This document shows positions 19,737 to 22,681 of a stretch of 64,000 bases of DNA, piece by piece (position 1 is the first letter of the stretch; every line of letters begins with the position of its first letter). The position numbers and the translations under genes were made by a program. Origin of the DNA: Edaphocola flava (GTDB lineage: Bacteria > Bacteroidota > Bacteroidia > Chitinophagales > Chitinophagaceae); the NCBI RefSeq assembly GCF_004118155.1, contig NZ_SAIQ01000002.1, forward strand, positions 460,487-524,486, read 5' to 3'. The notes under the pieces are model-generated. The model was not told where the DNA came from. It worked only from the letters and a program-made list of their open reading frames with translations, and searched no databases.

Positions 19737-20468
19737 ATGAAATCAATATTCTTATTTTTTAGTTTTTTACTTGCTGTATTAAATACTCATGCGCAGGATG
19801 TACGGTTGGAGTGGGTTAAAGGAATGTTTGCTCCTCATGCAATCCCATATGATATCAATACTGATAAACAGGGCAACGTGTATACAACTGGCACCTATTT
19901 CGGGCCTATGGATGCGGACCCGGGGCCAGGTGTATACCTGCTTGATGGCAATGGTTTTGATGCAGCTTATGTAACTAAGTTTAATGCTAGTGGGCAGTTG
20001 CAATGGGCTCGCTCCTTTGCAAGTACAGGTAGTGTAAGCGATGGTTTTTCTGTTACTGCAGATGGTAGTGGTAATGTATTTGTATCCGGTTATTTTAGTG
20101 CTGTGACTGATTTTGATCCGGGACCTGGAGTGTATAATCTGGATCCTTTGGTTGCCGGGTTTGTATTTGTTGTGAAGTTGGATAGTAATGGTAATTTTGT
20201 ATGGGTGAAATCATTTACATATGGTTATCCAGTATGCATTGAGGCTGCGGAAAGTGGATCATTGTACATTGGACTTGGCTCGGGGAGTGGTTCGATTGAT
20301 CTTGATCCAGGTCCTGGAATTGATTTAGTTACCTCCAATGGAGGTAATGCCTTGCTGATGTGCAAACTGGATGCTGCAGGCAATTATGTTTGGGGGAGAA
20401 ATATGGTAGGGAGTGTTACTAAATATCAATATTTTTCACTGGATCAGAATGGGCATATATATATATGA
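19737..20468 (+). CDS. SBBP beta-propeller repeat protein, N-terminal segment (signal peptide plus repeats). Likely the 5' part of a single gene interrupted by a frameshift
   Basis: Signal peptide MKSIFLFFSFLLAVLNTHA; repeated G(N/S)VxVxGYFSGxxDFDPGPGVYNL units (SBBP, PF06739-like). The ORF stops inside an (AT)6 tract. Confidence 0.6.
   Translation: MKSIFLFFSFLLAVLNTHAQDVRLEWVKGMFAPHAIPYDINTDKQGNVYTTGTYFGPMDADPGPGVYLLDGNGFDAAYVTKFNASGQLQWARSFASTGSVSDGFSVTADGSGNVFVSGYFSAVTDFDPGPGVYNLDPLVAGFVFVVKLDSNGNFVWVKSFTYGYPVCIEAAESGSLYIGLGSGSGSIDLDPGPGIDLVTSNGGNALLMCKLDAAGNYVWGRNMVGSVTKYQYFSLDQNGHIYI
20455..20466. repeat. (AT)6 dinucleotide tract at the junction of the two SBBP ORFs
   Basis: catatatatatatga; removing one AT unit fuses the ORFs in frame (…GHIY-MTGYFSGIKDFDPGPGVYNL), preserving the SBBP repeat register. 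Confidence 0.8.
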
Positions 20469-22681
20469 CAGGATATTTTTCCGGAATCAAAGATTTTGAT
20501 CCGGGACCAGGAGTATATAATCTGGCTGCAGCCTATACATGCACAAATATGTACGTCGCGAAATGGGATACTGCTGGTAATTTTATATGGGCCAGGAGCA
20601 TGGGCGGACAGACTGGGACCTATCATACCACAGTGGGATCATCTGTTAAAGGAGATGCCCAGGGCAATGTAGTAGTGGGTGGCCATTTTTCTGGTACTAC
20701 AGACTTTGATCCCGGATTCGGTATTTATAATCTTACAGCAACCACAAGTATTTTTACGGCATTGCAGCCGGATTTTCATATTACTAAACTGGATGCACTG
20801 GGTAATTTTCTTTGGGCTAAAGAAATGGGTGGACAAAGAGATGATGGCCTTACTGATCTGGATATTGATTCTGCAGGAAGTATATATTCAACCGGACTTT
20901 TTAAAGAGACGGTCGATTTTGATCCTGGTGCAGGAGTACACCTTGTGGCTGCTCATGATGCTGCGAGCGGGAGCGGAACATCAGATATATTTGTACATAA
21001 ATTGAATGCTTCCGGAATCCTGGAATGGATAAAAACTTTTGGGGGTAATGGTCATGAAGTAGTTGGTGGTATTGCATTGGATACCAGTACAAATGTTTAT
21101 ACAAGCGGTATATATTATTCTATAATTGATTTTGATCCGGATACTCCGGTGTATAATCTGAATGATATGACCTGGGGATATGGGGCATTCATTCATAAAA
21201 TGTCAGCCATTTGCCCGACATCAGGCGGAGCGCCCACATTAAGCAGTAGCACACTTACAATTATATGTCCGGATACAACGGCCAATATCAGTAGCCTGAT
21301 AACCAGTACACGCCCTGCTGGTATTGTCTTACAATGGTTTACTAATGATACTCATACCGGTACACCATACGCTACACCGGCTGCTGCTACAGCGGGCACG
21401 TATTATGCCTTTTATTATGATCCGGCCAATAATTGCTACAGTCCGGCTGCGGTAGTTACCGTAAGTAATGGCGGTACAACCAATATACCGCTTTTTGATC
21501 CTATCGCTCCTTTGTGTAGTGGTGTTATCGCAAGCCCATTGCCAACCAGCTCTACGAATAATATTACCGGTAGCTGGTCACCCACCTGGAATAATGCTAC
21601 TACGACAACTTATACCTTCACCCCGGCTCCGGGCCAATGTGCAGTTCCTGTAACCAAAACGGTAGTTATAAAGCAAGTTACCTATGGCACGCATTCCGTT
21701 TCCATATGTGAGGGTAGCAGCTACCTGTTCAACGGGCAGCAGTATACTACTGCTAATCATACAGCAAAAGATACCCTGACGAATGCGGTCGGTTGTGACA
21801 GTATCATTACCCTCAACCTTACCGTCGTTCCGGTCAATCCGGTTACGGTGAATGAGCAGCTGGAAGGCTGTGGCAGCCTGCGTTATAAAGGACAGTATTA
21901 TTATGCTGATACAGTTGTTAGCGATACGCTTTTATCCCACCTGGGCTGTGATAGTGTATATAACATTGCTACTATTAAAGTATATCCTCAAAATCCTACC
22001 ATAATCAGCATTGATACCTTTGCCTGTAAACGCCTTACGCTTAATGGGGTTGTGTATACCAGGAGTGTATATGTACAGGATACTATTCGTACAGTACATG
22101 GCTGCGACAGTATCATTCGCCATATCAATATTGATATTGTAAACTTCGATCTGGATGCTGTTGCAACAGTAACCAACCCTTACGAAGGTGAGTTTGTGTA
22201 TATCAATACCAGCAGTGTCACCGGACAATCTTATGAGATCTCCAAATGGCAGCCCGCTGCTTTATTTGCGGATCAGACGGCATATAGCAACAACTTTAAA
22301 GCCCTTGTGCCAGGCATGGTAAATGTCCTGGTTGCGGCTGTAGGCAGACATAATTGTGCTGATTCTGTTACGATCCCGATACAGGTAAGACCTTATGATC
22401 CGAAAATTATACTGCCCAATGCTTTTACACCAAATGGCGATGGCCGTAATGATGTATTCATGCCACAATTAAGTATTGATCGTGCGTATACCTTCCTGGA
22501 GTTTAATGTATATAACCGCTGGGGGCAGATATTGTATAGTACATCCAATGTAAATGCAGGCTGGGATGGCAGTAGTAAAGGAGTATTGCAGGAACAGGGT
22601 GTATATTATTATACGATTAAGGTAAGACTACTCAATAACGATGTTCGATCATTCTCTGGAGAACTGACTTTACTGAAATAA
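20465..22681 (+). CDS. SBBP-repeat protein, C-terminal segment, with a T9SS type-B (CHU_C/gliding-motility-associated) C-terminal sorting domain
   Basis: Continues the SBBP repeats from codon 2 (TGYFSGIKDFDPGPGVYNL). Cys-rich middle region; C-terminus ILPNAFTPNGDGRNDVF...GWDGS matches T9SS type-B CTD (TIGR04131-like). In the -1 frame relative to the upstream ORF. Confidence 0.7.
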   Translation: MTGYFSGIKDFDPGPGVYNLAAAYTCTNMYVAKWDTAGNFIWARSMGGQTGTYHTTVGSSVKGDAQGNVVVGGHFSGTTDFDPGFGIYNLTATTSIFTALQPDFHITKLDALGNFLWAKEMGGQRDDGLTDLDIDSAGSIYSTGLFKETVDFDPGAGVHLVAAHDAASGSGTSDIFVHKLNASGILEWIKTFGGNGHEVVGGIALDTSTNVYTSGIYYSIIDFDPDTPVYNLNDMTWGYGAFIHKMSAICPTSGGAPTLSSSTLTIICPDTTANISSLITSTRPAGIVLQWFTNDTHTGTPYATPAAATAGTYYAFYYDPANNCYSPAAVVTVSNGGTTNIPLFDPIAPLCSGVIASPLPTSSTNNITGSWSPTWNNATTTTYTFTPAPGQCAVPVTKTVVIKQVTYGTHSVSICEGSSYLFNGQQYTTANHTAKDTLTNAVGCDSIITLNLTVVPVNPVTVNEQLEGCGSLRYKGQYYYADTVVSDTLLSHLGCDSVYNIATIKVYPQNPTIISIDTFACKRLTLNGVVYTRSVYVQDTIRTVHGCDSIIRHINIDIVNFDLDAVATVTNPYEGEFVYINTSSVTGQSYEISKWQPAALFADQTAYSNNFKALVPGMVNVLVAAVGRHNCADSVTIPIQVRPYDPKIILPNAFTPNGDGRNDVFMPQLSIDRAYTFLEFNVYNRWGQILYSTSNVNAGWDGSSKGVLQEQGVYYYTIKVRLLNNDVRSFSGELTLLK

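Follow-up and report, generated by a model that had tools for sequence, protein, structure and literature searches.

SSR contingency tracts usually lie in the 5′ or signal-peptide region of a gene and are retained across strains with many length variants, and Bacteroidota are better known for invertible promoters. SSR contingency loci are known in Haemophilus, Neisseria and Campylobacter (PMC11868660, PMC6321876), and the Helicobacter pylori gene oipA undergoes phase variation by a CT dinucleotide repeat in its 5′ region (PMC10564699). PhasomeIt calls dinucleotide repeats of at least six units potentially phase-variable, and its authors warn that tracts of the cut-off length may mutate at rates below 1e-5 (PMC6321876). 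According to the GeneTack survey, non-conserved, BLAST-validated singleton frameshifts are likely to be indel mutations or sequencing errors (PMC3711429).

We found a single-copy gene in Edaphocola flava (Chitinophagaceae), a soil bacterium, that is split at an (AT)6 tract and appears to encode a type-B T9SS cargo protein of about 980 aa. It lies in a window of 64 kb, by which we mean the whole stretch of DNA that was analysed. Like H. pylori oipA and the SSR loci, this surface-protein gene has an intragenic dinucleotide tract in which one unit toggles the frame. Unlike in the SSR loci, the tract comprises five to six units, lies 240 codons into the gene, where it encodes a structural strand, and is interrupted in other orthologues. 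Moreover, genomes with SSR loci carry many of them, whereas the E. flava tract is alone in the window. The locus also resembles the GeneTack singleton fs-genes (PMC3711429): there is a single, unconserved short-repeat indel in an otherwise intact gene, and two adjacent CDSs are annotated. It differs from them in that the break adjoins a boundary of recombination and that the surface-protein gene is mosaic. We consider it probable that the lesion is a recent slippage insertion, private to the strain, that created a null allele, and not a selected switch.

The intact protein shares with SprB-type, gliding-motility-associated T9SS cargo a CHU_C/TIGR04131 C-terminus, an N-terminal signal peptide and a large, beta-rich repetitive extracellular region. 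It differs from such cargo in that its N-terminal domain is an SBBP seven-bladed propeller, that the signal peptide and the C-terminal sorting domain (CTD) are on separate polypeptides in the sequenced allele, and that no PorP/SprF-like partner gene was seen beside the locus in the 64-kb window. In syntenic loci, a type-A (Por_Secre_tail) cargo gene lies upstream. CylK (PDB 7fh7/7ron) has repeats of the same SBBP family and is the best Foldseek match to the modelled N-terminal ~480 residues (~480 aligned columns, ~20% identity, E = 4e-16). CylK, which has an extra N-terminal domain, is an enzyme of cyanobacteria that catalyses Friedel-Crafts alkylation, and the likeness is one of fold only, with no catalytic equivalence implied.

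The two ORFs listed in Table 1 are one gene in two pieces. ORF1 ends in GGG CAT ATA TAT ATA TGA, and its stop codon overlaps the start codon of ORF2, which gives the sequence ATGA. The frame of ORF2 is −1 relative to that of ORF1; as a mutation, this corresponds to a +2-nt insertion, i.e., one AT unit. When one AT is removed in silico, a 980-aa ORF with the junction GHIYMTGYFSG results. ORF1 is identical in sequence to P0126, an “NHL repeat-containing protein [Edaphocola flava]”, and ORF2 is identical to P0125. RefSeq annotates the two E. flava halves as separate proteins, of which WP_161971271.1 (710 aa) is a sub-sequence of ORF2 starting at an internal Met.

Table 1. Features of the split cargo gene and its surroundings, in window coordinates
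Feature	Coordinates	Strand	Remarks
ORF1	19737..20468	+	243 aa; Sec-type signal peptide and SBBP blades 1 to mid-4 (3.5 blades)
Predicted signal-peptide coding region (MKSIFLFFSFLLAVLNTHAQ)	19737..19796	+	Upstream half only; hydropathy and direct reading
Predicted seven-repeat SBBP beta-propeller	19800..21208	+	Fused residues ~22-490; interrupted in blade 4; repeat motifs and AlphaFold2 model
(AT)6 tract, frame-break site	20455..20466	+	Codons (C)AT ATA TAT ATA T(GA); one unit more than in intact (AT)5 alleles
ATGA overlap	20465..20468	+	ORF2 ATG 20465-67 over ORF1 TGA 20466-68
ORF2	20465..22681	+	738 aa; SBBP blades mid-4 to 7 (3.5 blades), Cys-rich beta region, type-B T9SS CTD; no signal peptide
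Recombinant (imported) segment, ~0.7 kb	20480..21195	+	81% identical to conspecific L017, versus 99.7% immediately upstream
Predicted T9SS type-B C-terminal sorting domain (CHU_C / TIGR04131)	22409..22675	+	ORF2 residues ~649-737

The fused protein has seven “G-N-V-Y-x-T-G” strands (residues 46, 112, 174, 239, 309, 380 and 451) and seven “DFDPGPG” motifs (residues 59, 125, 188, 252, 322, 393 and 464). The frameshift falls in the fourth of these strands, within one propeller domain. Against SBBP PF06739 the fused protein scores 35.2 bits (cut-off 20.5). The AlphaFold2 model of the orthologue P0001 is all-beta, with a block-mean pLDDT that is mostly 80-95 over residues ~22-460 and falls towards residue 490. 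The profile score, the seven repeats and the CylK-like predicted fold together place the domain among the predicted SBBP beta-propellers. CHU_C PF13585 (62 bits, cut-off 27) and TIGR04131 (51.8 bits, cut-off 35) match only ORF2, and a C-terminal sorting domain above the curated cut-off marks the protein as a predicted T9SS type-B cargo. Conversely, a signal-peptide-like N-terminus, MKSIFLFFSFLLAVLNTHA followed by QD, is present only in ORF1; mean Kyte-Doolittle hydropathy over residues 4-16 is 2.51 there versus −0.56 at the N-terminus of ORF2. All orthologues, and likewise the (AT)5 reconstruction, have signal peptide and CTD on the same polypeptide.

These results agree with an earlier note on this DNA, which had located the break at the (AT)6 tract, described an SBBP register that continues over the junction, and assigned the signal peptide to the upstream ORF alone and the type-B CTD to the downstream ORF alone. 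Its further claim, that one AT unit less restores a single 980-aa ORF, holds in silico and is matched by alleles that occur in nature. The conspecific contigs L017 and L018, whose flanks are 98.3-98.9% identical to the window, have (AT)5 and an intact 978-aa ORF. Their junction, CAT ATA TAT ATG, encodes GHIYMTGYF, exactly as predicted.

All eight of the other allele groups that we recovered have the gene as a single ORF of 968-982 aa in the same neighbourhood, with CorA upstream and a 139-aa gene and a TNT gene downstream. The orthologous proteins P0001, P0002, P0003, P0004, P0005, P0121 and P0124 each correspond to one uninterrupted ORF in this size range. A stable pseudogene that is shared by orthologues, which the earlier note had entertained, is ruled out by this comparison, as no orthologue is split.

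The tract itself varies among alleles. L001 has (AT)5 and L019-L022 have (AT)5 followed by A, while the site reads CAT ATT TAT ATA in L003 and L015, CAT TTA TAT ATT in L004 and AAT TTA TAT GCA in E. aurantiacus. A pure tract is found in the window and in three allele groups, where it always has five units; in four of the eight others (L003, L004, L015 and L005) it is either broken up or missing. The observed lengths are therefore five units and the single case of (AT)6. Given that the tract is interrupted or missing in distant orthologues, it probably results incidentally from the codons for His-Ile-Tyr-Ile/Met in a conserved beta-strand. A pure (AT)5 also occurs in two backgrounds that are 20-25% different just upstream (L017/L001-type and L019-type), which could point to its being retained to some extent.

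We also looked for further broken or length-variant alleles. In the 90% protein cluster and a search with ORF1, the only OFF-type fragments were those of the E. flava isolate itself. Metagenome contigs of three alleles (2, 4 and 15 contigs) all have the ON length, but they were retrieved via exact intact proteins, so that they are intact by construction and constitute weak evidence. A metagenome pattern scan that allowed (AT)3 to (AT)11 re-found the compost MAG contig alone and no further length variants. No independent assembly of the sequenced strain was found in the collections searched, and the genome-contig scan returned no species nearer than E. aurantiacus.

The region around the tract bears signs of recombination. 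Upstream of the break, 2 of 586 nt differ from L017. The recombination boundary is at 20467-20480, so the left edge of the imported segment lies 1-14 nt from the AT tract. The first 93 nt of this segment are identical to allele L019, and the remainder is closest to L003 (~90%); no paralogous donor is present within the window. More generally, the gene is highly mosaic, and propeller segments have been exchanged between lineages that are 10-15% apart in their flanks. That the tract adjoins the edge of a recombinant segment in a mosaic gene is a new observation. The mosaic structure suggests that the protein is under diversifying pressure.

Apart from the frameshift, the gene shows no decay. The dN/dS ratio is 0.07-0.2 on both sides of the break, and changes on the window branch downstream of it comprise 13 synonymous and 6 non-synonymous ones. 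We found no second disabling lesion in the gene, and thus neither the multiple lesions nor the relaxed constraint of a decaying pseudogene. By this sequence comparison the lesion is single and young, and any pseudogene would be a very young one.

A singleton lesion that is missing in every relative and surrounded by no decay whatsoever could also be an artefact. In that case, the 980-aa gene of the strain would in truth be intact, with (AT)5, and the additional unit would stem from library PCR stutter, a long-read indel error or consensus polishing. The GeneTack view of singleton frameshifts (PMC3711429) fits such an error. However, the ~20 kb of the window that is comparable with relatives contains no further gene with a broken frame, and ORFs that lie side by side elsewhere in the window are each a complete gene of their own. 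The assembly is therefore not indel-prone, and a generally indel-ridden assembly is ruled out for the window. In addition, at 12 nt the AT tract is short to be a source of stutter or consensus errors when an assembly is made from short reads. We regard an artefact as unlikely, and infer that the lesion is real.

A second alternative is that the tract is a contingency locus. It would then be a hypermutable, reversible switch of a T9SS surface protein, with (AT)5 as the ON state and (AT)4 or (AT)6 as OFF states, and could serve bet-hedging, e.g., against phage or predators. A one-unit change indeed shifts the frame, and both states occur naturally (five units ON, six OFF). The product is surface-exposed or secreted, a class in which phase variation is common. 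Purifying selection on the rest of the gene is expected of a gene that is switched rather than discarded, and the strong mosaicism suggests diversifying pressure. The OFF allele has exactly six units, the PhasomeIt cut-off (PMC6321876), whereas the ON alleles have five, below the usual cut-offs. Moreover, a switch should be retained with multiple lengths, but the tract is interrupted or absent in half of the other allele groups, and the protein collection contains no OFF fragment beyond that of the E. flava isolate. The tract also encodes a buried structural beta-strand far into the gene, so that any in-frame lengthening would probably disrupt blade 4.

The window likewise offers no comparable repeat. 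The (AT)6 tract is its sole dinucleotide tract of at least five units, and the runner-up has four. Such a tract is rarely expected by chance: the expectation for ATATATATATAT is 0.03 copies per window, and at least one copy occurred in 3 of 100 shuffles. The longest homopolymer is 8, and there is no tetra- to heptanucleotide repeat of at least four units and no set of contingency loci (phasome) within the 64 kb. The DNA hairpin that the AT tract could form is insignificant, and an Rfam scan of the window gave no matches. Our literature search found no description of repeat-based contingency switching in free-living soil Chitinophagaceae. On this evidence we judge a contingency locus to be improbable. 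Slightly less probable still is a combined scenario, in which the AT run in blade 4 is a reversible switch of the T9SS propeller, the flanking conserved stretch is a recombination joint that shuffles propeller halves, and both diversify the surface protein. Of the earlier note's proposal, the part in which one gene is broken by an AT unit stands, given the (AT)5 of natural intact alleles. The phase-variable switch is unsupported, since the pure tract is not conserved in more distant orthologues and the ON allele has five units.

The third alternative is programmed recoding, in which the (AT)6 template still yields full-length protein through ribosomal or transcriptional slippage on the AT run. 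A stop codon in the A-site can promote shifting, and a UGA immediately follows the slip site. For the ribosome, tRNA-Tyr could re-pair from UAU at 20460-62 to UAU at 20462-64, a +2 shift that is equivalent to −1. On this repeat, a +2 shift would lead to perfect codon-anticodon re-pairing and exactly the GHIYMTG product. However, the frame transition is conserved in no orthologue, and the junction has no X XXY YYZ heptamer. The 100 nt downstream have a minimum free energy of −21.7 kcal/mol (z = −0.92), and equally or more stable folds were obtained for 35 of 200 shuffles; with a stability no greater than that of shuffles, an RNA structure as a recoding stimulator is ruled out for this stretch. 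To our knowledge, neither efficient +2 shifting nor dinucleotide transcriptional slippage is established in bacteria. We therefore view recoding as very improbable.

We return to the reading that we favour, a recent slippage insertion. The intact protein would begin with a Sec signal peptide, followed by a seven-bladed SBBP beta-propeller and a stalk that is rich in Cys and beta structure, and would end in a CHU_C sorting domain. In this lineage, the short (AT)5 run appears to arise only from CAT ATA TAT ATR coding of the conserved His-Ile-Tyr-Met/Ile in blade 4. In the sequenced isolate, slipped-strand mispairing presumably inserted one unit (+2 nt) into this run. The first predicted product is an exported 243-aa half-propeller without a T9SS sorting signal. 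The second, made at best via re-initiation at the ATGA, would be a 738-aa cytoplasmic fragment without a signal peptide. Given these two products, we infer from the sequence that the (AT)6 allele has lost its function and is effectively null. The lesion is very recent, and private to the strain or to its assembly. It lies within a conserved stretch where divergent alleles recombine, and the insertion may have arisen during the import of the ~0.7-kb segment or independently of it. In principle, slippage could also revert the lesion, with the low frequency to be expected for six units. There is no sign of selection on the tract as a switch.

The analysis leads to a correction of the annotation: the 243-aa “NHL repeat-containing protein” and the 710-aa WP_161971271.1 are the halves of one frameshifted T9SS cargo gene. 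The locus also illustrates, in nature, how the codons used for a conserved beta-strand motif (His-Ile-Tyr-Ile) give rise to a slippage-prone AT run. If length heteroplasmy of the tract were true, a T9SS cargo of an environmental member of Bacteroidota would undergo repeat-mediated phase variation, for which our literature search found no precedent. Regardless, the mosaic exchange of propeller segments may interest researchers who study T9SS adhesins or phage receptors.

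We found that the break between ORF1 and ORF2, the upstream and downstream halves of an SBBP-repeat T9SS type-B cargo gene, lies at an (AT)6 tract, as the earlier note had claimed: window 20451-20470 reads GGG CAT ATA TAT ATA TGA C, with the ORF2 frame -1 relative to that of ORF1. Deleting one AT indeed reconstructs a single 980-aa ORF (the fused protein), reading ...NGHIYMTGYFSG.... No other dinucleotide repeat in the 64-kb window reaches five units; the second longest has four, and the longest homopolymers have a length of 8. Dinucleotide-preserving shuffles give an expectation of 0.03 such 12-mers per window.

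Coordinates and allele states of the split gene, its surroundings and its relatives
Feature	Location	Details
(AT)6 tract	20455-20466 (+)	direct reading
ORF1, 243 aa	19737-20468 (+)	stop TGA at 20466-68
ORF2, 738 aa	20465-22681 (+)	start ATG at 20465-67, overlapping ORF1 stop
Cys-bracketed motif copies	~21220-22400	fused residues ~495-890
Segment vs L017	19869-20454	2/586 differences, 99.7% identity
Segment vs L017	20455-20479	AT indel the sole difference
Segment vs L017	20480-21195	135/710 differences, 81% identity
Segment vs L017	21421-22681	25/1261 differences, ~98% identity
L017/L018 (JGI metagenomes)		flanks 98.3-98.9% identical to window (conspecific); CAT ATA TAT ATG ACA = (AT)5, GHIYMTG
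L001 (compost MAG)		flanks ~90% identical; CAT ATA TAT ATG ACA = (AT)5
L019-L022		flanks ~91% identical (L019); CAT ATA TAT ATA ACA = (AT)5+A
L003, L015		more distant; CAT ATT TAT ATA
L004		more distant; CAT TTA TAT ATT
L005 (E. aurantiacus H2)		flanks 94-96% identical, N-terminal half divergent; AAT TTA TAT GCA
MITE-like element, full copy	50201-50694	
MITE-like element, partial	25094-25364	
MITE-like element, remnant	22689-22790	just past SBBP gene stop
MITE-like element copies	L017 9337-9832 and 12945-13427	
MITE-like element copy	L005 9407-9895	
Opposite-strand gene pair	22852-23271 (-) and 23275-24033 (-)	directly 3′ of SBBP gene
2022-aa ORF	7751-13819 (-)	
Inverted duplication	L020 5001-7943 (+) / 8000-10942 (-)	one JGI metagenome contig

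ORF1 is identical to protein P0126 and ORF2 to P0125, both from a 769,909-bp NCBI contig of Edaphocola flava (Chitinophagaceae). RefSeq treats the split as two separate genes, not as one frameshifted pseudogene: an ‘NHL repeat-containing protein’ (243 aa, CDS at window 19737-20468) and a ‘gliding motility-associated C-terminal domain-containing protein’ (WP_161971271.1, 710 aa), which begins at an internal Met (CDS 20549-22681).

The SBBP family (PF06739) scores 35.2 bits on the fused protein (cut-off 20.5) and weakly on each half alone. Seven G-N-V-Y-x-T-G strand motifs and seven DFDPGPG motifs occur at regular spacing, confirming that the repeat register is unbroken, and the frame break falls within the fourth strand (GHIY|MTG). 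Also as previously stated, only ORF1 has a signal-peptide-like N-terminus, and the type-B CTD is restricted to the ORF2 C-terminus (CHU_C, PF13585, 62 bits; TIGR04131, 51.8 bits, cut-off 35). The AlphaFold2 model of the orthologue P0001 (89% identical) is confidently all-beta over residues ~22-490, and its best solved-structure match is the CylK SBBP propeller; the frameshift thus cuts through a single propeller domain. Between propeller and CTD, a Cys-bracketed motif (C..G.SY.FNGQ.YT.SN.TAKDTL.NA.GCDSI.TL.LTV) recurs several times; this motif has no Pfam match, and AlphaFold2 confidence is low over the region.

The ORF1 product would reach the periplasm as a half-propeller without a T9SS signal, and ORF2 could be translated via ATGA coupling, without a signal peptide. 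Because neither product should reach the surface, the (AT)6 allele is expected to be null. It is probably a recent, strain-private null allele that arose by slippage.

A search with the fused protein recovered full-length orthologues of 968-982 aa. They share a neighbourhood of SSF transporter, GH3, CorA and SBBP genes, followed on the other strand by 139-aa and TNT-domain genes. Comparison of relatives, as the earlier note had proposed, found every recovered orthologue intact and none split, ruling out a stable pseudogene common to them. Intact alleles were found on 2, 4 and 15 contigs, retrieved by exact look-up of intact proteins and hence intact by construction. Independently of that look-up, the only OFF-type (split) fragments in the 90% cluster and an ORF1 search were E. 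flava’s own, and among the alleles compared (AT)6 is private to this isolate. Junction codons vary across alleles, and the AT tract is thus a by-product of the synonymous codons used for a conserved beta-strand, ATA being the least frequent codon for Ile here (19%). In L020, the whole gene, CorA and GH3 form a perfect inverted duplication, which is probably not biological but a palindrome created in assembly.

These comparisons bear on the earlier contingency-switch reading. A unit change does flip the frame, the mechanism of H. pylori oipA-type dinucleotide-repeat contingency genes, and (AT)6 just reaches the PhasomeIt cut-off of six or more units, although the authors of that tool caution that tracts of this kind may mutate at below 1e-5 (PMC6321876). 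Several features expected of contingency genes are lacking, however: the tract is not retained across orthologues, the ON-state (AT)5 falls below that cut-off, the codons involved specify a structural strand and not a tolerant region, and the window has no other repeat loci nearby. Genuine phase variation is therefore quite improbable. Recoding on the (AT)6 template is a far more doubtful proposition still. In formal terms tRNA-Tyr could re-pair at +2 on the UAUAU repeat, an unsupported route. The junction lacks an X XXY YYZ heptamer, the 100 nt 3′ of it show no more folding than shuffled sequences do (z = -0.92), and no orthologue conserves the frame transition.

The GeneTack survey ascribes non-conserved singleton frameshifts to indel mutations or sequencing errors (PMC3711429), a logic that admits an isolated 2-nt assembly error. 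We consider such an error unlikely, although less so than phase variation, as the window is not indel-ridden: in ~20 kb comparable with three relatives, the SBBP gene alone gives a frame-changing match, and other close-abutting ORF pairs in the window each consist of two complete and distinct genes (e.g., ECF sigma factor and anti-sigma factor). No second disabling mutation was found in the SBBP gene, and dN/dS is 0.07-0.2 both upstream and downstream of the shift. Polarised window-branch changes 3′ of the shift, leaving out an imported segment, number 13 synonymous versus 6 non-synonymous. Together with the 2/586 differences from L017 upstream, these values mean that the lesion arose very recently, is reversible or is an artefact.

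Also present in this region is a ~490-bp repeat element that is non-coding, rich in hairpins and MITE-like in appearance, and that has no Rfam match. L017 carries full copies in inverted orientation on both sides of its intact SBBP gene, and a single copy lies upstream of the gene in E. aurantiacus H2; at the window’s SBBP gene there is only a ~100-bp downstream remnant, composed of the element’s two ends. In the conserved opposite-strand pair, the 252-aa member has an apparent signal-peptide-like N-terminus and orthologues matching PF14021 (TNT, tuberculosis-necrotizing-toxin-like), while the 139-aa member has no Pfam match; the two might function as toxin and immunity protein. The 2022-aa ORF has orthologues that combine Ig_7/PKD domains with a T9SS sorting domain of type A (Por_Secre_tail). 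This ORF contains internal ~0.6-0.7-kb repeats, relatives’ copies matching both 9702-10315 and 10958-11677, and no repeat tract comparable to (AT)6.

A new finding is that similarity to L017 drops sharply just past the tract. Window 20480-20572 is identical to allele L019; beyond 20572 its nearest allele is L003 (~90%), which in its flanks matches the window at only 86% identity. The gene has thus imported a segment of ~0.7 kb, coding for blades 4-7, and the left edge of this segment lies 1-14 nt from the AT tract; no paralogous donor occurs within the 64-kb window. The chance of such proximity is roughly 5%, on a naive estimate that assumes about 4 mosaic boundaries across 2.9 kb. However, no part of the boundary region is more conserved than the stretch encoding FSLDQNGHIY(I/M)TGYFSG, and other alleles likewise switch affinity there. 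The AT run forms in this stretch, which is also the likeliest place for crossovers between diverged alleles to resolve. The extra AT may thus have come from the recombination joint, through mis-registered pairing or repair synthesis, or from independent slippage.

Compared with L001, L003, L004, L005, L015, L017 and L019, the SBBP gene (19737-22681) is strongly mosaic, successive segments being nearest L017, L019, L003 and L004. In E. aurantiacus H2, the protein’s N-terminal half is only ~46% identical despite flanks of 94-96%. These affinities imply that propeller segments have repeatedly been exchanged as alleles between lineages. The (AT)6 split itself is commonplace as an event; the gene in which it lies is highly mosaic.
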